From a virus (taxonomy: Duplodnaviria > Caudoviricetes): 64,000 nucleotides of DNA. Below the pieces are notes generated by a model that made no database searches, was not told where the DNA came from, and was given only the letters and a program-made list of their open reading frames with translations. The position numbers were made by a program, and so were the translations under genes. This document shows positions 3 through 16,033 of this stretch, piece by piece. The DNA is taken from IMG/VR virus record IMGVR_UViG_3300005077_000001, positions 128,001 through 192,000 of that record. One strand, 5' to 3'. How positions within the stretch are numbered: the stretch's first letter is position 1; each line of letters begins with the position of its first letter.

Positions 3-3000
3 TTTGAACAACTAGCTCGTCAATTGTATGTGTTAAAAGAGACAAATTGGGGATTAGACTATATTTCTTATCAAGTAGGAATGGGTAAATTTCCTGGTTC
101 ACTAGAACGAGCTAGAATGGATGAATCAACAGGTATGCTTCTACCTGGGTTAGGTACTCCAGGTATGAATTATACCCCAATAATGGAATCTAGAGCATCT
201 GGCTATGACGAGTTTGGAAATGTGAAATACGAAGACGTACCTCAACCAATGCAGCCGGGAAGCAGGTTATGGCAAGAAGCTATTTTACATCCTGGGAAAG
301 CATCCTACTATAATTGGCTTGCTAAGGAAGAACAAACTAAAGCATTACAAGATAGAGAAGATCAGAAATTAGAGCAACAAAAAGGTATAGCAAAGCAAGC
401 TCAGACATCCATTGTAGAAGCTCTTTATGAGCCATCTCTTCCTGAAGGATTTAGAGAAGTACTAAATAAACAGAGATCTAAATTAGAAGAAGATTTGAGA
501 AGAGCAAGTGAAATAGAAGAAGTTGGGCCTGATAATATTTTGAAAAGGAGAGGCTTTAAATCTTTAAATGATCTTAAGGGTTTATCAGATGCCATAAAAA
601 ATGCACTTAAAGCCGAAGATAGAAAATTAGAAGCTACTTATATATGGATGCCTATAGTAGATGCTATTAGAGATTTACATGGTGCACTAACAGGTGAAAG
701 ACCTGAAGGAAGCAAAGAAGAACAAAGAATGCGCGCATTCTACAATAATCCAGAACAATATTATTATTCAAAAGCAGCACAACTAAGCCAGCATTATATG
801 GGACAAGAAGGTACAAGTGTAATAGAAAATACTAATTTAACTAATACTTTATCCTCTATAGAAAGTAAACCTTACAGTATACCTGTTGGTCAATATGCGG
901 GTTATCAAAGCAAGTTAGGTTCAAGAGATACTAATGAGATATTAAAATCTATATTAGAGGTGTTAATAGGGTGTTGCAGAGAAGGTAAAGTTGGTTCTGG
1001 GAGATCATCAGGAACATCTGATACAGGAAAAGAAAGATCGCCTATAAGCCAAGATTCAGGCAGCGCATCTGGGAGTGCAGGTGTACAAACTTTTGACTAT
1101 GGTACTCCAGATTATCAAAAACTAGTTCCAGTAGGAAATACTGCCTATTCTGTTGGCTCATCCACCACTAAATCTTCTACTTCTGCCGGTTCTGGATCAG
1201 TTCAGTCTTGGGTAAAAAGTGATGGTACAGTTGTGGGAGTACCAAAAACCCAAGTAGATGCAATGTCCTATTTGAAACATAGAGGCTATCCTGATGAGAA
1301 ATTAGATGACATTGCTGAAAGATATAAACGTCCTTTACCTATAGGAGATTATTCTACCGATAGTGTTATGATGGCGGCATCTAGAGCTTATGCTAGTACT
1401 GGAAAGTACTTTAGGCCTAGTGAAGCCTATAATAGTGATTTTGATTGGAGAGTTAGACAAGAAGGTAGTCTTCTTGATATTGGAATATCTAGACTTAGCG
1501 ATAATAGGTTCCTATATTCTGATATTAAAGCTCAGATGGAATCTGGTAAAGGAGCTGGTTGGCTTGATTCAGAATCTAGATTAGCTCTAATATTAGCGCA
1601 TGCTCCTTCTCTTAACATAGGGGGCAGACAGACTGTAATAGGGGAGTCTAATCCTTTAAGTATGGCGTTTGTTAATCTCTCTAAAGCACGTATGGATCAA
1701 ACTGTTGCCCATGAATTATTTGGACATGGTATGGAGACTTTAGGTGCAGCTGAATTACGTGGGGAACAAGGTATTTCAATTGGGGCGACACCACGAGTTG
1801 AGTATCTATCGAAAGTATTAGAATTGATAAAATCTCAAGTAGGTGAAGCTCCATTTAGAACAATTACTAATCAACTAATTAAAGATCCTCAGTTATATCC
1901 TGATTTATTCAAAGGGCAAGGTAAAGAAATAGAAGATGCCTATGCTGCTTATGTGAATAGATATCCTCGTGGGAATGTTCCTACTTTAGAACTTCTAAAG
2001 ATGCAAGAGAAAGCAAATAAACTCCCTCTAGACTTATCTCCTAATTCTTCTAATTGGTCTCGTTTGACCGAATATATGGCAATGTTTGCTGAAGGAGAAA
2101 ATACTCCTTATGGAATACCTACTGAAACTTGGCTTCGTGTGGTACGTAATGTTTCGCCTAGACATTTCGAAGGAGTAGATAAGTTCCTATCTTCTAGATT
2201 TGCTAATGATAATCTATCTGATTCTGAATTAATGAAAGAATATAGAATTGCAATTAATAAAATTAAATCAGAAGTTTATACCCCTGCTCATTTAGTAGAA
2301 CAAAAAGAAGTCACACAACCAGTTGTTAGCCCAATTGATAAAACGTTAGCTTCAATTGGAAGAATTCCAGATTTAAATTGGAAAGTATTTTCTGATGAAT
2401 TTAAAGAACGAAATAAGATAGGAATGGGTGACAAACTAACCAAACTATTTAATAATGTAGGCGATAGTATTAAAAAAGTTGTGTTAGGAGATGATACAAA
2501 AGTAGCTTTACAGAAATTTCAAGGTGTTGTAGGAGCAGTAGAAGTTGAAGAAAATAAGTTTACAAACGATTTATCAAAAGCTTTAGAATTAAGATCTAAC
2601 GTTATTTCTCAAGTCCAAGAAAGTATAGGCTTAATAAAAAGCAAACGAACACCCTTAGTTAGTAGTCCCCTCATTAGAAAAGATTTGATTGGAGCAGGTC
2701 CAACTGGTGTTGAGTTACTAGAAAATGAAAGACAAACTGGAGAGTTAGTTTCCAACATTATAGCAAGCAATCTTTCTAAAGCCTATCAACTTCCTTTTAC
2801 GGATAGGACTAGAAAGCTATTATCTAATGAACAAATTGATATGGGGTATAAAAAAGATTTACTCAATCTTACTCCTACGCTACCTATGATAGAGGAAAAT
2901 CAAAAAGACGAATATAAAAATAAATTGTTTATTCCTATAATGAAATCTCCATACTCTGAATTAGCTAGAAAATTTTCCAATGAGGCACAAGCACACCCTG

Positions 3001-6000
3001 AAGTAACTTCAGAAGCCATACCATTAAGAAATGAAGTATTTTCTATCACAAAAGAAATGGCTGGTACTGGACCTACTGATGTTTCCTTGGATACAAATGA
3101 ACCTGTAGACTACACATCTCCAGCAGGAGTAATACCTTTTGTATCTACTCAAGGATATCAACGGACTTTACCATCCTCAAATCTTCCTTTTATGATGGGG
3201 CTATTTAGAGGAAGAACTAATGAGCCTTTTAAATTTGATGGAGGGTCATCTTTATTACCAGGTGTTGATAGACGTGTAATGTTACCAGAAATTAAGGATA
3301 AATATCCTTCAATGCTTAAAGCTTTTACTAATATGCAATCTCCTATATACCATTATAAGGGTATAGCTAAATGGAATGAAGGAAAACCATATATCAATAT
3401 ATATAATTCTGATAAGATATCGCTAGAAGAATTTTTAAAAAGGGCTAAACACGAGATAAACCATTTAGTATTATATAGATTATACACTTCTCTAAATAAA
3501 GAAGAAAGAGATTATTTAAAAACAGAATTGGAAACTACACCTTTCTCAAAAGATTTTCTTCCAGACATAGTTGATATGGTAATAAAAGGAGCTGGTGGAT
3601 TTAAAATAGGAAAAGAGTTATTAGCCATGTCCACTGAACGAGGATTAATGTCTGATAGTCCTATATTAAGAAGATTACAAGAAATCACATTATCGATTTA
3701 TAAAAAACATGAAGCAGAATTAAAAGATGTTCATAAGAAAACTATGTCTGGCTCTTCTTCTTTGTTTGATTTATCAACAGCAAAATATATATTAGAAGAT
3801 ATTAAATCAGATCCTTTAAAACAATCTTTGGGCGCAGGTGCCGAAGGTAAGATATATACAAGTCCTAAATACCAACATTTAGCTGTAAAGGAATATGCTC
3901 AACCAATATTTGGATATCAAGATTGGTTAGATCGTGGAAATGAAATAATGCAGAGATTGCACGGTACGTCTCTATTTCCAGAAACATCTTTAAATTATGA
4001 TGATAAAAAAGGCGTTTTTATAGAAATTATGGAACGGTTACATGGAGAAACTGTGCATAATTCTGTTGGTCAATCAGGTTTTAATAAGTATGAGGTACTA
4101 AAGGATTATAAACAAAAAATTTATGAAATGTTGAAACGTAAAGTATTTCCAGTAGATTCTCATCTTAATAATATATTTTTGGAAAGTTCATCTAAAAAAC
4201 AGAAATTTATAGACTTAGGATCTTTAGATTTAGGAGAAAATGTTGAATATATAAATGAAATTTTAAAAGACATAGGAGTTAATCAATATTCTAATTACTT
4301 AACTAATGATCACTCAGCTAAAATAGAGCAATCAAAAATAGCAATAGAAGCTTATGCTGGGCCTGTTGTTGATATTCAAAAAAAAATGACGGCTGGTAAT
4401 AAAAAGATTTTAAAAGAGATTTCGATTCCAAATTTGGAAAGATTAATTCCTCTTTTTAAGAATAAAACACTAAAAGACATGTTTCAAAATGCTTTAGATA
4501 CAGCTAAACAATATGCTGGGTCTCCTTCACTCTTAAAAGGTCCAAATGATTTTCCAACTTTCTTAAGCGGTCTACATCCAGGAATGGCCCCTGAACAAGC
4601 CATTGATGCAGCTATGGCGGCTAACAAACAATCTATTGAATACTTAGGTGGCCCAGAAAAAGCGGCGGGTTTCTTAGAAGGGTTTAAAACTCCATTATTA
4701 GAAGAAACACAAAAGAAAATAAGAGATATTATGAGAGGAGAATTTGGTGGTTCTTCCTCACTAACTAGTCATTTTATGAATAGTTTACGAAGGATGCCGC
4801 AGTCTTATGAGGCTGTTAAATCTCTTCATTCTGGGGTTAGAAACTTAGGTCTTCAAAACCAAGTTAATCTATTTGGTGGTGGAGTAAGAGATATTTTAAG
4901 AGGCGAAACACCAAATGATTATGATGTACAAGTTAGAAGCCAAGAAGCATTGGATCTATTAAGAAGTAAAATGCCTTGGGATCTTTATAAAGTCAATGAA
5001 GCTTTTGATGTTAAATCTTATATGCTTCCTACAAGGAGAGAGTTTTTATCTACATTAGTGAATGAGCTTATAAAGCATACTTTTTTAAGCAAAACAGTAG
5101 GAAGAGCACAAACAGCACATCAAGTAACACAAGATTTAAATACACTTTTAGGCAAAGATATTAAGAGAGAAGTTTTAGATAGATTTGGAGGTAGTTCTTC
5201 TTTATTTGATATGTCTCCTGATTTTAAAATAGATTTAAGTAAACCTATAATTGATATACCAAAGATTCCTAAGATACCTAGAATACCAAAAACAGGGTAC
5301 TATCCTAAAGGTAATTTAGATACCTATTATGATTCTATATTTGCAACTCCAGAAGAAAAACGAAGTATATCTTGGAATGAAAGATTCAATGTAGATTCAC
5401 TAGTTCAAGGACCATTTGAAAACCTATATGATGACATAATGCGTGATAAATATGCTCCTAGAACCCGTCCAAGTATAAATTTTAGAAATTTATTTAGTGC
5501 TCCTCAATTTAGAAATATATTTTCTAATTTAAAAGATAGTGGAAGTGTATTTTTTGGTGGTACTGGGAAAGCTCAAAGTACACAAGTGGAATTAAAAACA
5601 TCTAAAGATATAGAAAGATGGTTAAGACAATTCACTGAAGCTGAAGTAATGCAAGTTGCACAAGAAAGCCATAGATTAACTGGGGATTTAGCAGGTCGTC
5701 AAGCTCCTACACAAGAAACTGCAAGGGATTATATACTTAATATACTAAACGATATTGCTCAACGAGAAGGTGGTAAACTATTAGCTGGGACTGGAATAGC
5801 TAAGAAATTCTTACAAATTATTGCTCCTGATCTAACTCCTTCGTTATTTACTGGTCAAACTTCAGAAGGTAGTATCAGAAGAGGCCATAGCTTTGGAAGA
5901 CCTAGTGCCACTTTCGGAGGAGGTAGAGTTTCTATTACTGAAAGTGTTGCTGGAACAGGTGCGGAGAAACATGAATTTGGAGAAGCACTTTCTGATGTAG

Positions 6001-9000
6001 CTATCCAATTATTACATCAGCGTTTTGAAACCGGTACTACTTCAAAAGAGCAACTAGCTTATGAAGATTTAATGCCACTAATAGAGAAGTCTGCACCTAA
6101 AACTGCACAAGAAATAAAGGATCAAATGGAACGTAAACTGGCATATCCTACGGAAGGTGAAAAGTTTAGTGAAGTTTTAGCGGATATTATGGGGCAACAT
6201 CAAGAAAAGTTGGTAGGTAATCTAATATTAAAAAACAATATTACTCCTGAAGAATTCATGGATATACTAAAGCCTACTGGAAAAGAAAGTGGTTATGAGG
6301 AATTCATTACTAAAGAAGCTTGGCATAAAGTATTGCAAGAGCGTTATTATGAAACACCCAGAGGGGAGGGAGAAGGTGCTATGCCAGAACTCCCACGTGG
6401 GTATAAGTTAGAAAAAGGGGTTGGTAGATTAGGATATCGTACAGCAGGAGCGGCAGAAAGTTTACTCCATGTTCCAATGATTGGTAGCCCATTGTCTTTA
6501 GTAAGTGCTGCATCCAAACTAACAGAAGGAACTAGATTTAGTTCTCCTTTCCAAATAGCAGAAGAAGCAATGATGACTATGCGTGGTCCACTCGGTATGG
6601 CTGCTAGATTTCCTTTTGGTATGGCGGGTATCTTTGCTGGTTCTGCGTTAGGAAAAGGACAAGAACTAGGAGAGAAATTAAATATTAACCCTCTAACTGG
6701 CACTCTACTTGCTTCACCAGAAGAATTATTAAATTTTCAATTATTTAATCTTGGAAGCCAAGCTGAGTTCTTTGGAAAAACACCTTTATCTAAAATTGGA
6801 AAGCCTATTGGTCCTACTTGGATGCACGGATGGGGAGGAAATTTATCACCAGAATTACAGGTGAAAAGAGCAATAGCTGAAGCGGGAACACTTAGAGGAG
6901 GAGCAGCTTCCCTGCTTAAAACGGGTGGTAGCTTAGTAAAAGGTACTGTAGCAATGGAAGCTCTTAGTCCTGTTGGGGAATCTATTTTTGGTTATATTAA
7001 TGAAAGATACGGAAAAGAAATAGATGAGAAATTAAAAGGAATAATGGGGGAAGATACTTATAAAAATTTTGCTTTAACTACGAGTGGTATAGCTAGACAG
7101 TTTTCTTACATATTTAGTAAAGTAGGAGAAGCTGCAACTAGTGTTCCTGGGGGAGAGTTAGCTAGCTTCGCTATTAGCGGAATAAGAACCAACATGAGTC
7201 GTTTAATAAGTGACAGAATAGATACAAAAGCAATAAAATCCGCTAAAGAAAATATTAGAAGCTTAGAACAACAAATGCAAGATTTTCCTACATTTAAACC
7301 TTTCTATGAACAACAAATACAAGAAAAACAACTTAATATTGAAGCGTCTGGTCGATCTATGGGGGATAGGTTATTAGAAAGGATGATGGGGCAGAGGTTT
7401 GGAGAAGGAGCTACTAGCACAAGGGTTGAGGATATACAACAAAGAATTGACTGGATGAAAAAAGCTTTAGCAGGAGGAACATTAGAAACTAAACCATCTA
7501 TCCCATTTGATTTGGGTCCTCTAAACTTCATAAATGATTTACTACCAAAACCTGAATTAGATGATAAGCGTAAATGGGAAGAAGTAATACCTGAAGGTGC
7601 CCGCAAACAATTATTAGAGAGGGAAATAAAAAAATTAGAAGCTCAAATGCAAACTCCAACTGCTATTGGAAATTTACCTAATATTAATGATTTTATGTAC
7701 GAAAAAACAGAAAAAATTGTTAATATGAGAAAAGAAAGAATGGATTTAGAAGATGAATTAAATAAGCTTATTGGCGAAGATCCAATGGGCGGCCAAACGG
7801 GCCCAGCCAGAGCTGGTATTAGAAATAAAATAGCAGATTTAGACAAAAGAATAAATCAAGAAGTTCAAGTAACTGATAATTATTATAAATTAATAACTGA
7901 GGCACAAAAAGCACAAGTCTCTTCTACACAACCGCAGATTCTGGCTGAACCGGCACCTGCCCAATTAGAACCTGGTACTGAAGTTAAGCCACCAAAAGAA
8001 AAAGTAATGATGCCTGGTATTTTAGGAGATTTGATTAAACATAAATATGCACCACAAATTGTAGCATTAGTTGGTATGATTCCTAAACCAAAAGTTCCAG
8101 TTAAAACATTAGCTGATACTCCAAAAGAAGAGATAGAAAAAGCTTTAGAACTTGCTAAATCTGAACGAGGTAAAGCTTATAACGATTACTATAATTCCCA
8201 AGAGTATGAAAAAAATAAGGAATTGATGAATGATATCCTTAATTCTAAACCTGGGTCAAAAGAATGGCGTGAAGCGTCAGAGAGGTATAAACACTACACT
8301 ACTGAAACTACATCTCATCTAAATCTTAAAGAATCAAGAGTATTTGAATTAGAAAAAGAATTACAAAAAAGGGATGAAAAGGCAACTGAGGTAAGAAAAA
8401 GGTTAAAAGATAGAGAGAAAGCAATTAGTGATGAGAATAGTGAGATAGAGAAAAAGATAAGATTCATTTCTAAAGATAGTAGGGTTAGTGAATACCCACA
8501 AGCTGATTACTTTAAAAATAGAATTGATACAACAACAGAAGATATAGAAAAAAGAAGAGATAAGAACCGAGCATTGTTGGCTGAATATGCCTATAATTTA
8601 AATCAACCCGGATTTGAGGCAAACGCTACTAAAAGTGAAGATGTTCTAAATGAAAAAACTTGGAATCGTGAATACGGAACATATGAACCTGTGCGTATGC
8701 CTAAAGCTGTACCGTTTATTAAGCCATTTGATCCGTATGAAGCAGAACGTGCTCAGTTAAATATGTGGGGGTATACTCCTTCACAATTATATAAAAAGAC
8801 TCATCCTAAAGAACGAACTCCGTTGAGATTACCTGGAATGGGATTTGGAGTAGTGTTTACTGCTGGTGGAGCTAGAGAAGAAGGTTCTGGTGGAGCTTGG
8901 GATTTAGGCAGCTCTTTTATGTCTGATCAATCAGATTATAGAAATGCTGGTTTTGGATATCCAAAAAGAGAAATGGATGATAGAACAATAGGTGCTTTAA

Positions 9001-11009: not shown

Positions 11010-13523
11010 ATGGCAACGGCAACACAAAATAATCCAGAAATATTTGGTAATCCATGTTTAACAAATAATTGGTCAAAAACTATACAAGCCTGTAGAGATT
11101 CAATGAAGTATGACAAAGACTTCATTGCTATAGATATACTTCGTACTTTTGATATATCTGTTAATATGAATTCTGTTTATGGCGATAATTCTCATGATTC
11201 ACTTAACAAAAATCAATATACTAATTTATGTCCACTAGATATTCAAACTCAAGATGCTTTTACAGTAATGAGAGCTTCTTTAGATGCTAAATTACTAAAT
11301 GGGGAATATTGGGAGGTATATTCTAATGAATTTGGTGAAGCCGAATTTGTATTAATATTGAAAGATAGTTCTCCTAATACCCATTTATGCAAATTACCTG
11401 AAATACGGTATTGTATTCCAGGTGCAAAAATGGATCAAATTACTGATTTAGTAATTGTAAGAGGGAATACTCCGATTCCTGAAATATCTTGTGGTGATAC
11501 TGAAATTATTGTATTATCAAAAGATCAACCCATAGTTGAAAATGTGTGTGAATTAGGAAATATATTTACTAAAAGACCCTTTAATTCTGCTGAATCAGCT
11601 ATAACTGCTCTTGGGGCTAAAATGGAATGGGGAATGTTAGCGGAATCAAGGGGTGGTTCGTATGTATCTCGCTCTTGTGATTTAGGTAAATTTAGGCAGT
11701 ACGGCACAATAGTATATCCAGAATATGATCGTAAGCAAGTTTTCAAAGATAACATAAGTGACCCAATAGAAATTGGTCCTTTTCAGCAGATTATAGGTTG
11801 GCTTATAGATATTGACTTTGGTAATTTTACATCTGAAGAATTACAACTGTACTATAATGTTAATTTCACTTCTGGTGCTACCGAAATACCTGTTAGGTTA
11901 AAAGATAGTGGACCTTTGGTAGGAAGTGTCTCTGCTCATGAACTTGAAAACTATTTTCCGTTAGAATGTGATTTATCTGTTTTAAATATGAATAGGGCTT
12001 GCATGACCCCTCAAGAATTATTAAAAGCTCATTTTGATGCTTATACACAATTGCAGGGGTGCTCTAACCCCCGTCAGGCTATATTACAAGGGGGTGGTAT
12101 TACTGGATACAATGGTGGGTACATAGTCCCTAATATGTATCAGTATGGTAAAATCCAATCTTGTTTAGATTTTAGTGATGCAAATAGATGGGGCTATCTA
12201 GGTTTTACGGAAAAATGTGGGGGAGACCCTGTTGAAAACATATACCAAAGTACAACACAGATAATAGCTACTGGATTTCCGTTGCGTAGTTGGTACTATG
12301 TGCATTCTTCTGCAGGTCAAGATCAGTATTTTTTTGGTATTCAAACTGAACACCAAACTATCCAATTAACAGAAGGGGAGCATTGGGTTGAGTTATCAGA
12401 GTTTCCTGGTTTGTATACATCTTTAGGTAAGGGAGCTTTTAGATACTATGGGTTAAGATTTAAAGCCCCACCCTCAGCTACTTATAGAGTTACTTATTCT
12501 AATGAGCATACTCCTAATACAGGCGGTTCTTTTGCTGCTGGAGGAGGTACTGATATGGGATGGCAAAATCCGTTTCATGCTTATTTAGGTATGTTTATAC
12601 GTTCTGGTATTGATATGCAAGATTTATCTATATTTTATCAACATGTTGCAGGTAATTATAGTGCTTATTATTTTACTGAGGGATGTTGGAACTACACCCC
12701 AGGAGGTTACCTAGCAGGAATAAACGATGGGTTATGGACTATAGATGAAGGTAGTTTATATGCTAAAGTAAATGTATCAAGACCTGGGATTCAGATTAGA
12801 ACAGCTGGAAAAGATGTAAGACCTTTATTGGAAGCCATTTCGATGAAAGTAAAACCTATTTTTCAAAATACCATGCAACAACCAGTTGCAGCTTGTGGTA
12901 ATAATTTTTGTCAAATAATAGATCCAGAAACTGGTTTATACGATAATGTATGGTGTACTAGAGAAGAACTAGATAGTGATGCAGAAAAATTAAGAGATGC
13001 TATGACTGGTATTACCTTAGAAGTAAACATCACTGCTTTATTCCCAACAGATACATCTTTAAATGGGTATAGAACTGCTGCGGAAGAATGTTTAAAAGTA
13101 GCACAAAATTTATATAATTATTATAATACTTTTAGAAATGAACCATATAAAGGATATACTTATATATGTGGTCCTCCTACAAATAAAGATGAAATACCAA
13201 GATTAGGTAAATGTGTGAGTACTCCTCATGGTATAAGAACTATAAATACGATCAATTATAATTATCAAGATGGTCAATCTTATACATTAAATATTGAAGC
13301 AGGCCCAGCAATGTTTTCTGCACAAGGTGTAGGTCAGCTATATAAAAAGCAAGTAGAAAATGTTACTATAACAGGTAGAGTGGAACAAGTATTAGATGGG
13401 GCTTTATATAAAGTTAATATCCCTAGATATGGAATAATTACAGCTTGGAATGCTGCTAAATGGCCGTGGGAAGTAGGGGATCAAGTACAAGTTGAACTAT
13501 ACAATGTTCCAAAGGAGGCTTAA
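11010..13523 (+). CDS. Putative tail/baseplate structural protein (837 aa)
   Basis: AAGGAG RBS upstream. Position between the TMP-like gene and the hub-like gene. C-terminus (ITGRVEQVLDGALYKVNI...WEVGDQVQV) resembles an OB-fold. Confidence 0.45.
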   Translation: MATATQNNPEIFGNPCLTNNWSKTIQACRDSMKYDKDFIAIDILRTFDISVNMNSVYGDNSHDSLNKNQYTNLCPLDIQTQDAFTVMRASLDAKLLNGEYWEVYSNEFGEAEFVLILKDSSPNTHLCKLPEIRYCIPGAKMDQITDLVIVRGNTPIPEISCGDTEIIVLSKDQPIVENVCELGNIFTKRPFNSAESAITALGAKMEWGMLAESRGGSYVSRSCDLGKFRQYGTIVYPEYDRKQVFKDNISDPIEIGPFQQIIGWLIDIDFGNFTSEELQLYYNVNFTSGATEIPVRLKDSGPLVGSVSAHELENYFPLECDLSVLNMNRACMTPQELLKAHFDAYTQLQGCSNPRQAILQGGGITGYNGGYIVPNMYQYGKIQSCLDFSDANRWGYLGFTEKCGGDPVENIYQSTTQIIATGFPLRSWYYVHSSAGQDQYFFGIQTEHQTIQLTEGEHWVELSEFPGLYTSLGKGAFRYYGLRFKAPPSATYRVTYSNEHTPNTGGSFAAGGGTDMGWQNPFHAYLGMFIRSGIDMQDLSIFYQHVAGNYSAYYFTEGCWNYTPGGYLAGINDGLWTIDEGSLYAKVNVSRPGIQIRTAGKDVRPLLEAISMKVKPIFQNTMQQPVAACGNNFCQIIDPETGLYDNVWCTREELDSDAEKLRDAMTGITLEVNITALFPTDTSLNGYRTAAEECLKVAQNLYNYYNTFRNEPYKGYTYICGPPTNKDEIPRLGKCVSTPHGIRTINTINYNYQDGQSYTLNIEAGPAMFSAQGVGQLYKKQVENVTITGRVEQVLDGALYKVNIPRYGIITAWNAAKWPWEVGDQVQVELYNVPKEA

Positions 13524-13703: not shown

Positions 13704-14927
13704 TTGAGAGTATTCGTTAAAAATCAAAGAAATAAACCATTAATGCCAACAACTCCGGCAAAAGCTAGAATTTTGCTAAAGCAAGGAAAAGCAAAGGTTG
13801 TAAAAAGAACCCCATTTACAATTCAATTACTTTATCCAACCGGAGAAACTAAACAAGAAATTACTTTAGGAGTAGATACTGGGTACAAATTCATTGGGCT
13901 TTCAGCAGTTTCTAAAAAAGAAGAATTATTTTCAGCTCAAGTAGAATTAAGAACAGATATTTCTAAATTACTTAAAGAGAGAAGAATGTATCGAAGGGCT
14001 AGAAGAGAAAGAAAAACTCGGTATCGTAAACCTAGATTTCTTAATCGTGCAAATGCAAGAAAAAAAGGACGATTGATGCCTTCAGTTCAACATAAATTAG
14101 ATTCTCATATCAAACTCGTGAACAAAGTTTCTGAATTATTACCTATTTCAAAAGTTCGAATGGAAATTGCAGCCTTTGACATTCAGAAAATAAAAAATCC
14201 TGAAATAAAAGGAAAAGGATATCAGAACGGAGAACAGAAAGGGTTTAGTAACACCAGAGAGTATGTTTTGTACAGAGACAGCCATAAATGTCAACTTTGT
14301 AAAGGAAAATCAAAAGACAAGATTTTGAATGTGCATCACATAATTTCAAGAATCGAGGGAGGAACTAACCAGCCCGACAACTTAATTACGTTGTGTAAAA
14401 CTTGTCACAGTGAATTTCATAAAGGCATAGTAGAATTAAAAGCAAAACCTAAAAAGAGTTTCAAAGCAGAAACTTTAATGTCTATAATAAGATGGAGAAT
14501 AATTGACCAACTTAAAGCACTGTATATAGATGTTGAAACTACTTACGGCTATGAAACCAAAGAAAAAAGACTAGAATCAGGGATAGAAAAATCTCACATT
14601 AACGATGCTTTTGTTATAGCAAACGGTTCAATACAGAAAAGGAATCAATCGTACCTAATAAAGCAAGTGCGAAAGCAAAATCGTAAACTATTTAAAGGAG
14701 CTAGGAGTCATATTAGAAATACTGCTCCACGATTTTTATTCGGATTTCAGAGATTTGATAAGGTGCTTTTTGAAGGAAATGAGTATTTCATATATGGTAG
14801 ACGAGTAATAGGTAGATTCAAGTTATTTTCTTTAGAATCTGGGATAATAAAAGAAGAACCTAGTTATAAAAGATTAAAATTACTTGAAACAAAAAATACG
14901 TTTGTTATTAATTTAATAAATAGATAA
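13704..14927 (+). CDS. iscB: IscB RNA-guided endonuclease (PLMP/RRXRR + split RuvC + HNH)
   Basis: N-terminal PLMP motif, RuvC-I LGVDTG, Arg-rich bridge helix RRMYRRARR, RuvC-II MEIAAFD, HNH CQLC...VHHI...GGTN..DNLITLCKTCH, RuvC-III SHINDA. TTG start after AGGAG. Confidence 0.93.
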   Translation: MRVFVKNQRNKPLMPTTPAKARILLKQGKAKVVKRTPFTIQLLYPTGETKQEITLGVDTGYKFIGLSAVSKKEELFSAQVELRTDISKLLKERRMYRRARRERKTRYRKPRFLNRANARKKGRLMPSVQHKLDSHIKLVNKVSELLPISKVRMEIAAFDIQKIKNPEIKGKGYQNGEQKGFSNTREYVLYRDSHKCQLCKGKSKDKILNVHHIISRIEGGTNQPDNLITLCKTCHSEFHKGIVELKAKPKKSFKAETLMSIIRWRIIDQLKALYIDVETTYGYETKEKRLESGIEKSHINDAFVIANGSIQKRNQSYLIKQVRKQNRKLFKGARSHIRNTAPRFLFGFQRFDKVLFEGNEYFIYGRRVIGRFKLFSLESGIIKEEPSYKRLKLLETKNTFVINLINR

Positions 14928-14953: not shown

Positions 14954-16033
14954 ATGACTGATTGCCCAACTCTAAGATTAGATTTAATACGAGCAAGAAT
15001 AGAAGTTGCTGGTATGAGTTTTGGAACTCCAGGATGTGGATACGATACTCATGGGTATATTAACTCTTTTAGTTTAAACCAAAGTAGAGGTCAAGTAATT
15101 TCTACTTTAAATTGTCAACTAGAAATTTGGATTAGAAATCCTATTTCTAGCATAATAAATACTTCTGATGGATTAGGACCTACATTAACTTTGTGGGCTG
15201 GAGTAGAAGGGGGAATGCCTCAAATATTTACTGGATATGTAAAATCTGTCAAAGGAGATCCGCATTTTAATGATTCGAGAAAATATTATTTATCTATAAC
15301 TGCTGAAGATGTTTTTACAAAAATGCGTAATAAAAAGTATAGTAGAAGATTTAAAACTTCTGATTCTGCATATGCATTAATTAGAGGAGGTCAAAGAAAA
15401 GGTGGTGGTAGAATGACACAATTACGTAGAGTTCCCACTAAAGCTATACGATATAAGCAGGTTGCTGGTACTGTTCAGGATACCCATTCCCCATTACAAG
15501 CTACCCCAGACCCGAAAGGATGGACTCCTAATGGTAGAAATCCACAATCAGATACAGTAAAAGATAGATTAGCAGGTCAGTATGTTTATACTTTTCATCC
15601 AAGCACCGTATCCTTATTACCTGGGCAAAGTGCCATATTAACTTTGTACGATGAAGAAGGGAATCCGCGACTAGTAGGTTTACAAAAAGATAATCGAGGA
15701 GATTTTGCTGTTACAATAGACGATAATAGAAGATGCTCTTGCTTTGTTAATCCAAATAACTATGGTACTACTAATAGTAGTAATGTTGATGCAGCTTCTG
15801 GAACAGCTAAACCAGGAGAATTAAGAGTTATTACCTCAGAGATGTCAGATGTGTATTCCGATGAAACAAGAGGAAGGTTCATAATCACAATGAGAGATTG
15901 GTATCCTTTTAGAGGGGTTTTCGTAGACCCAGCAACTAAGGCACTTGCTAAAATAGATGCCATGACTGTTGCTCCACATGGACACGATAACTTAGCAACT
16001 GGTGGTCCCGCAGGAGGTATAGTAGCATATTAA
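14954..16033 (+). CDS. Baseplate hub-like protein (gpD/gp27-like fold)
   Basis: Motifs LTLWAG...QIFTGYVKSV and YLSITAEDV resemble hub proteins. Structural operon context. Confidence 0.55.
   Translation: MTDCPTLRLDLIRARIEVAGMSFGTPGCGYDTHGYINSFSLNQSRGQVISTLNCQLEIWIRNPISSIINTSDGLGPTLTLWAGVEGGMPQIFTGYVKSVKGDPHFNDSRKYYLSITAEDVFTKMRNKKYSRRFKTSDSAYALIRGGQRKGGGRMTQLRRVPTKAIRYKQVAGTVQDTHSPLQATPDPKGWTPNGRNPQSDTVKDRLAGQYVYTFHPSTVSLLPGQSAILTLYDEEGNPRLVGLQKDNRGDFAVTIDDNRRCSCFVNPNNYGTTNSSNVDAASGTAKPGELRVITSEMSDVYSDETRGRFIITMRDWYPFRGVFVDPATKALAKIDAMTVAPHGHDNLATGGPAGGIVAY

Follow-up and report, generated by a model that had tools for sequence, protein, structure and literature searches.

Polyvalent proteins of phages and conjugative elements, described by Iyer, Burroughs, Anand, de Souza and Aravind in 2017, combine, on a single polypeptide of a mobile element, unrelated enzymatic effector domains with zincin-like HExxH modules and a structural domain of the virion, and their zincin-like peptidases were predicted to process them (PMC5512222). 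Cutting of a tail protein has been described for phage T5, in which the tape measure pb2 is cleaved and its enzymatic domain thereby separated (bioRxiv 10.1101/2022.09.20.507954). Here, we analysed a short recurrent peptide, of the type FGGSSSLFD, that is encoded within a giant gene of a virus of the class Caudoviricetes (IMG/VR record IMGVR_UViG_3300005077_000001). The stretch under study, referred to as the window, spans 64,000 nucleotides and corresponds to bases 128001-192000 of this 256,335-bp record, which is rated 97% complete. Five copies of the peptide lie at the borders of modules, most of them enzyme-like (three of four), of one open reading frame (ORF), and their best reading is that of a selected, protein-specific junction signal that punctuates an array of four gene-sized modules.

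The reading frame that bears the motifs is already open at the first bases of the window. Indeed, it is stop-free across genome positions 102047-138997 and encodes 12,316 residues, and not just the approximately 3.6 thousand residues visible to a first-pass annotation of the window, and thereby takes up roughly 14% of the 256-kb genome, which seems exceptionally large for a phage gene. The part inside the window is designated P0001 (Table 1), whose residue n equals residue n+8652 of the giant protein. Upstream of the window, the ORF encodes an RNA_ligase domain (Pfam, E=8e-9), a LigD_N 3'-phosphoesterase domain (E=1.7e-15), an RVT_3/RNase H domain (E=5e-22) and, at approximately giant residues 5631-5827, a PhageMin_Tail (tape measure) domain (E=1e-27). 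Given these four domains, the host of the motifs is a giant tape-measure-type protein of a jumbo phage, loaded with enzymes and organized like a polyvalent protein. As in the polyvalent proteins described so far, several unrelated enzymatic domains (RNA_ligase, LigD_N, RVT_3/RNase H, kinase-like and nucleotidyltransferase-like) share one polypeptide that also carries zincin-like HExxH modules, and PhageMin_Tail supplies the fused domain with a structural or delivery role in the virion. The phage is otherwise very divergent, and most ORFs around the giant ORF have no PHROG or Pfam match.

The first-pass annotation had pointed to four of the peptides (copies 1 to 4 in Table 1), all of which we found where it had placed them, in frame 3 of the plus strand. 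All five copies align without gaps on their Ser-Leu pair and follow the pattern [FMY]-small-G-[SG]-[SP]-S-L-[FLT]. Three of them are strong (copies 2-4) and two are degenerate (copies 1 and 5), the latter resembling each other (FDGGSSLLPG versus YAGSPSLLKG). The core [GS]SS[SL]L occurs four times in the 12,316-residue protein, compared to 0.19 expected occurrences, and none of 2,000 shuffled versions reached this count. Moreover, GSSSL is one of just two 5-mers present at least three times in the giant protein, and the pair formed by copies 2 and 4 is the top-scoring 10-mer self-match of the entire protein. The looser expression [FMY].G..SL[FLT] matched exactly five times in the genome's ORFs of at least 100 residues, each time within the same 660 residues (5%) of the giant protein, at a distance of 1,900-2,600 residues from its C-terminus; shuffling the protein yielded 0.11 matches on average and two at most (n=500). 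A position-specific scoring matrix (PSSM) trained on copies 2-4 ranked copy 1 fourth (score 20.0) and copy 5 fifth (18.0), with a shuffle-maximum score of 18.8 on average and 22.7 at the 95th percentile. These two best non-training matches both fell inside the 660-residue cluster, and copies 1 and 5 count mainly through this position. Taken together, the motif set is real, non-random and exclusive to one stretch of the protein.

It is extremely improbable that this set arose by chance or is a Gly/Ser linker of a generic, low-complexity kind. Such a reading could draw on copies 1 and 5, whose individual scores lie in the range covered by the best chance match, and on the exact nonapeptide being encoded in unrelated proteins. 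A scan of IMG/VR DNA for the back-translated motif gave four matches against approximately three by chance (a rough estimate), and those in frame with long ORFs fell in unrelated proteins, namely a 523-residue putative (probably lectin-like) viral protein and a protein on a giant-virus contig. The same scan of JGI sequences gave 40 matches, mostly from one family of proteins of about 1,300 residues, which we take to be putative Oar-like TonB-dependent receptors, and otherwise from junk frames. Neither this nor the modest scores of copies 1 and 5 accounts for the shuffling results above or for the confinement of all five loose matches to 5% of the giant protein. Furthermore, six other stretches of this protein that are rich in Gly, Ser, Thr or Pro look different and do not contain the motif, which is therefore not a generic flexible linker. 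A loose look-alike, SFGSSSAM, is encoded at genome position 101847, in the ORF directly upstream of the giant ORF and in another frame. It is probably a coincidence, since outside the motif copies the genome encodes GSSS about as often as chance predicts (four seen versus roughly three expected, by a rough estimate).

The codons of the conserved residues vary among the copies: serine is encoded by TCA, TCT, TCC or AGT, leucine by TTA, TTG or CTA, and glycine by GGA, GGG, GGC or GGT. These differences argue against a recent internal duplication of DNA as a trivial source of the repeats, and they bear out the earlier proposal that the conserved entity is the peptide and not the DNA. That the peptide was kept even though the codons (TCN versus AGT for serine) and the modules diverged fits selection acting on the peptide. 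With respect to a possible recent acquisition of the array from a foreign source, its GC content is 0.313 compared to a mean of 0.351, which places it in the lowest 1.7% of the windows compared, but the GC content at third codon positions is not unusual (lowest 7.4%).

With respect to the enzyme-like modules, the motifs always fall between catalytic signatures and never within them. The copies noted in the first-pass annotation indeed precede, in this order, the HEINH sequence (3450), the kinase-like glycine-rich loop (3831), the GGGVRD..DYD signature (4872-4934) and a Pro/Lys-rich segment (5256). The distance is 20 residues from the end of copy 2 to the kinase loop, and 34 residues from the end of copy 3 to the GGGVRD motif. 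The additional copy 5 (4512-4538), which the earlier reading had missed, lies approximately 95 residues past the DLG motif, near the expected end of a small kinase domain. The proposed location at junctions between enzyme cassettes was therefore upheld, with the seam position outside the catalytic signatures and the fifth copy as additions, and the data support the motif as a marker of seams between modules. The lengths and masses of the four pieces between the motifs are given in Table 1.

Table 1. Motif copies and modules in the C-terminal part of the giant ORF (window coordinates)
Feature	Window position	P0001 residues	Strand	Description
P0001	3..10997		+	C-terminal 3,664 residues of the 12,316-residue giant ORF
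Motif copy 1, FDGGSSLLP	3234..3260	1078-1086	+	degenerate; Pro/Gly/Thr-rich surroundings
Module B	3261..3743		+	161 residues, 18.8 kDa; zincin-like; HEINH at 3450-3464
Motif copy 2, MSGSSSLFD	3744..3770	1248-1256	+	
Module C	3771..4511		+	247 residues, 28.2 kDa; protein-kinase-like
Motif copy 5, YAGSPSLLK	4512..4538	1504-1512	+	degenerate; newly found; closest to copy 1
Module C'	4539..4742		+	68 residues, 7.3 kDa, acidic; helical in a low-confidence model
Motif copy 3, FGGSSSLTS	4743..4769	1581-1589	+	
Module D	4770..5183		+	138 residues, 15.9 kDa; minimal pol-beta-type nucleotidyltransferase-like
Motif copy 4, FGGSSSLFD	5184..5210	1728-1736	+	end of array
Pro/Lys tandem repeat IPKIPKIPRIPK	5256..5291		+	15 residues past copy 4

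Given these observations, we tentatively favour the idea that a polyvalent tail protein has, in these motifs, processing sites of its own, at which one of its HExxH modules cuts; the cleavage, the protease and the timing are what we infer. In this scenario, the giant protein would be transported either together with the DNA or before it. The coil exposed after each C-terminal helix would be cleaved by one of the HExxH modules, the simplest candidate being module B, which copies 1 and 2 enclose. Products of 18.8, 28.2, 7.3 and 15.9 kDa would thereby be released, and these might target host components or host defences. Recognition would rely on the invariant residues of the motif (Gly, Ser and Leu) together with flanking hydrophobic residues, and a zincin would be predicted to cleave N-terminal to Leu or Phe. 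It is conceivable, albeit doubtful, that the tape-measure protein acts as a self-cleaving polyprotein, whose embedded zincins release the kinase, the nucleotidyltransferase and the peptidase into the host after delivery.

Several observations are compatible with processing. They include, from the results above and below, the confinement of the motif to one stretch, its place between catalytic signatures and in predicted coil, its retention despite differing codons, its absence from the other linkers and the enrichment of HExxH in the giant protein; the predicted processing of polyvalent proteins (PMC5512222) and the cutting of T5 pb2 (bioRxiv 10.1101/2022.09.20.507954) serve as precedents. Module B, as one of the HExxH modules, is flanked by two motif copies, and a protease bracketed by its cut sites is common to many viral polyproteins. 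Modules B, C and D are about as large as free-standing phage proteins with similar language-model features. A fully helical tape measure of 12,316 residues would extend over approximately 1.8 micrometres (our own estimate, at approximately 0.15 nm per residue), which is far too long for a tail, so that part of the giant protein must be removed or housed elsewhere. Processing, if true, would thus help to explain the use of a protein far too long to serve as a tail ruler as a whole. The five copies are the best candidates for sites at which the giant protein is cut into separate enzymes, and a motif that is specific to the seams provides five exact places at which the processing of polyvalent proteins can be tested.

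A number of points weigh against processing. Module B has the HExxH motif as its only peptidase feature and matched none of the peptidase profiles, neither in Pfam with E values of up to 1 admitted nor MPTase-PolyVal (PF18818). The motif is missing from the borders of the RNA-ligase, phosphoesterase and RNase H modules, and it therefore cannot be a general processing signal of the giant protein. Copies 1 and 5 each score at chance level in the PSSM for a protein of this length, and the expression [FMY].G..SL[FLT] was composed after the copies had been seen. Moreover, the finding rests on a single uncultivated phage genome, and no orthologs that would show conservation of the motif were found in any searched database.

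A prohead (head-maturation) protease was suggested as the cutting enzyme in the first-pass annotation. T4 gp21 and the head proteases of phiKZ and SPN3US trim packaged proteins at short motifs. Such trimming extends to many packaged proteins of large phages (PMC10052503). Nevertheless, we consider a prohead-protease signal very unlikely here. Among the genome's ORFs of at least 100 residues, head genes such as capsid, scaffold and portal included, none apart from the giant ORF carries the strict or the loose motif, so that the scan of other proteins proposed earlier came back empty. Furthermore, the host protein has a tail tape-measure domain and not a head domain. The genome also lacks an S78 match, although this carries little weight in a phage so divergent.

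The local structure around the motifs bears on another alternative, in which the protein stays whole. Two single-sequence AlphaFold runs gave a predicted local distance difference test (pLDDT) score of 34.7 and 37.2 and are unusable for folds. In both low-confidence models, copies 2, 3 and 5 lie in coil right after a helix, as does copy 4 in the longer model, which weakly suggests a motif located in an exposed linker, a prediction driven by composition. The sequences upstream of copies 2-4 share faint traits over about 12 residues, comprising a [KR]-D-[IV] element and hydrophobic positions at -3, -7 and -11, which would fit an amphipathic helix ending at the motif. The motif could be the scar of an ancestral linker that was copied with each insertion or duplication of a module, and be kept as a helix cap and flexible hinge, with which each module could independently fold, or unfold for its passage through the tail. 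Such an uncleaved hinge or scar, the main rival of processing, is possible, if on balance unlikely. Besides the copies following a helix within Gly/Ser-rich coil, the shared upstream traits are what a duplicated segment would leave behind, and the N4 virion RNA polymerase and TraC1 exemplify large zincin-bearing virion proteins that are packaged uncut (PMC5512222). However, a scar without function would be expected to have eroded in step with the modules, whose divergence is itself past detection; the other linkers of the giant protein look different; and keeping the peptide despite codon divergence points to a constraint on specific residues and not on flexibility alone.

A second peptide appears to be private to the giant protein as well. 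The pattern [IVL][QE][SHA][YNA]AP (for example VQSYAP, VQSNAP and IQSAAP) occurs six times, compared to 0.017 expected occurrences, at giant residues 80, 4060, 5339, 5414, 5481 and 7554, all upstream of the window, whereas the genome's other ORFs contain no match. Three of the six copies are grouped just before the tape-measure domain, and the peptide might serve another part of the giant protein. That the protein uses several such recognition-like peptides would suit a role of the junction motif in recognition by something other than a protease. A tail-assembly chaperone or a loading factor might dock at it, or its serines might be modified, for instance phosphorylated by the adjacent kinase-like module. 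The invariant Ser position, the placement in putatively exposed coil and the kinase-like module inside the array are in line with this idea. We nonetheless regard it as rather improbable: no partner was identified, and neither docking nor modification requires placement exactly at module borders, even though both are computationally indistinguishable from the other readings.

Other roles of the motif were considered and dismissed. A function at the RNA level is at odds with the differing codons; as for an internal Shine-Dalgarno sequence formed by GGA-GGT/GGG, copy 2 lacks a suitable sequence, and with regard to internal starts, the next ATG is either 19-33 nucleotides away or absent, inconsistently among the copies. 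A phosphopantetheine attachment site (GGxS[LI]) was rejected given that PP-binding (PF00550) had no match in the genome or in the segments, and that the kinase loop starts 20 residues past copy 2, leaving no room for a four-helix carrier domain of approximately 70-80 residues. Clamp binding (QL[SD]LF-like), an intein and self-cleavage at Gly/Ser had no support from the sequence context.

As for the modules themselves, the giant ORF contains three HExxH motifs and one HExxxH motif. Apart from module B, the HExxH segments are located at approximately giant residues 3440-3720 and 3810-4090, and HExxxH is at P0001 residue 570. HExxH is enriched (three seen versus 0.115 expected), and mutual blastp comparisons of the four segments gave marginal scores (best E=0.006), for which reason we did not retain paralogy among them. 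Module B carries Glu residues 13-23 positions downstream of HEINH. Its nearest look-alikes in language-model features are unnamed clusters; in one later-ranked cluster of the 40 look-alikes listed, LPD23, a large polyvalent protein-associated domain, is annotated on 18% of the members, which is only a lead.

In module C, the order of kinase signatures is complete, comprising GAGAEG...K, the alpha-C Glu, the hinge, D-x-H-x-N-N and D-L-G. The corresponding sequences are the glycine-rich loop GAGAEGKIY (3831), LAVKEY (3879), the hinge IEIMERLHGE (4020), VDSHLNN (4152) and IDLG (4206). The module has a weak ABC1 match (Pfam, E=0.008), and its look-alike clusters by language-model features are kinases of the OspG/RIO/ABC1 type of approximately 200 residues (scores 0.94-0.96). 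Two similar sequences stand 27 residues apart in this module, EIMQRLHGTS (window 3942-3971; P0001 1314-1323) and EIMERLHGET (4023-4052; P0001 1341-1350). They form the second-best 10-mer self-match of the giant protein and may reflect a small internal duplication around the kinase hinge.

For module C', the profile search gave no family. Its last residues, directly before copy 3, read IRDIMRGE (window 4719-4742; P0001 1573-1580) and resemble VRDILRGE (window 4884-4907; P0001 1628-1635), which is located 55 residues further on, in the GGGVRD motif of module D. This likeness could be due to chance or be a remnant of a duplicated nucleotidyltransferase motif. Module D, marked by FGGGVRD (4872) and DYDVQV (4917), weakly matches PolyA_pol (Pfam, E=0.0044) and a poly(A) polymerase in the PDB (E=0.055), and it matches the phage nucleotidyltransferase phrog_1614 (E=5.7e-5); its look-alike clusters by language-model features are of the Gad2/PolyA_pol type (0.89-0.91), which we treat as a lead only. 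Past copy 4, the tandem repeat IPKIPKIPRIPK is probably an extended spacer.

The region around the motifs (P0001 residues 1000-1800) yielded no relatives in phage records (tblastn), in IMG/VR, on JGI metagenome contigs, in a set of 5.8 billion clusters among proteins of 2015-6412 or 418-1332 residues, or among 1.84 billion representatives (phmmer). Likewise, IMG/VR held no relatives for other parts of the giant protein or for the neighbouring gene, and a 32-residue junction peptide gave nothing significant against phage records. As the scans for the back-translated motif returned only unrelated proteins, the motif is not a widespread element. It may be private to one lineage, which for now limits its reach to one uncultivated phage whose region has no relative in any searched database.

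A relative of the neighbourhood was present on a 3.9-kb contig (ENA ERZ23486236, scaffold_28818), which encodes a 62%-identical homolog of the neighbouring gene of the giant ORF but does not extend to the motif region. On this contig, both flanking genes are 62% identical to those of the phage studied here, whereas the end of the relative's giant protein is just 30% identical over the last ~180 residues. The giant protein thus evolves much faster than its neighbours, which explains why no relatives of the effector modules are detectable and is as expected for a protein caught in host-phage conflict. Further downstream, an HNH/RRXRR (IscB-type) gene is located at window positions 13704-14927. 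It is not present in the relative, in which the homologs of the surrounding genes (window 11010-13523 and 14954-16033) lie just 2 bases apart; given this 2-base gap, the relative represents an element-free allele of the insertion site.

How does the array compare to known junction peptides and processed proteins? The sites at which adenain and the African swine fever virus (ASFV) protease pS273R process core polyproteins of dsDNA viruses (Gly-Gly/X), as well as the double-glycine leaders cut by Peptidase_C39, resemble the motif in that F-G-G or Gly-Gly is followed by small residues, after an amphipathic helix. Gly-Gly is, however, found in just three of the five motif copies. Moreover, Peptidase_C39 (PF03412) has no match in the genome, and neither does PF02902 (C48) of clan CE, the other clan CE families not having been searched. 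Negative results of this kind, for C39, C48, C80, S78 and MPTase-PolyVal alike, carry little weight in a phage so divergent.

The junction motifs of polymorphic toxins (VENN in CdiA, DPxGL in Rhs, PT-TG) are also short peptides that demarcate an enzymatic module, and the first-pass annotation had drawn a parallel to these systems. Membership in this group is not borne out. The toxin motifs are single, stand before one variable C-terminal toxin and are paired with an immunity gene, and membership would call for relatives that swap modules at the motif. In the array described here, the motif occurs five times and internally, there is no immunity gene, and none of the databases searched held a relative. 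Furthermore, many genomes share the toxin motifs, often down to the DNA sequence, so that cassettes can be exchanged, in contrast to the differing codons observed here.

Among tail proteins, the processing of T5 pb2, lambda gpH and T4 gp5 is similar in that a protein of the tail lumen is cut during assembly, which detaches an enzymatic domain from its rod-like part (bioRxiv 10.1101/2022.09.20.507954). These proteins differ from the giant protein by undergoing a single cut, without a recurrent motif and without an array of cytoplasmic-type enzymes. To our knowledge, the protease responsible for these cuts has not been identified.

With regard to polyvalent phage proteins, we found no conserved cut-site or junction peptide described in PMC5512222, in which the word 'linker' does not occur, and we know of none from other sources. 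The polyvalent proteins described there comprise 2-15 domains, unlike the far larger giant protein, which is built around a tape-measure domain (PMC5512222). Their zincin family MPTase-PolyVal (PF18818) matched nothing in the genome with E values of up to 1 admitted, and only HExxH motifs are present in the giant protein.

The MARTX toxins of Vibrio share the outline of the array, as a giant delivery protein carries effectors and an embedded protease cuts unstructured linkers after delivery (PMC2900308). They differ in being secreted bacterial toxins that act on eukaryotic cells and in using an inositol hexakisphosphate (InsP6)-activated cysteine protease domain; the corresponding Peptidase_C80 (PF11713) had no match in the phage genome at E up to 1. 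MARTX linkers are known to share little beyond the Leu at the cut site, whereas the junction motif of the giant protein has eight constrained positions. Despite these differences, the MARTX effector array is the closest functional analogue, and if the tape-measure protein does cleave itself, it would represent a phage counterpart of MARTX-type autoprocessing toxins.

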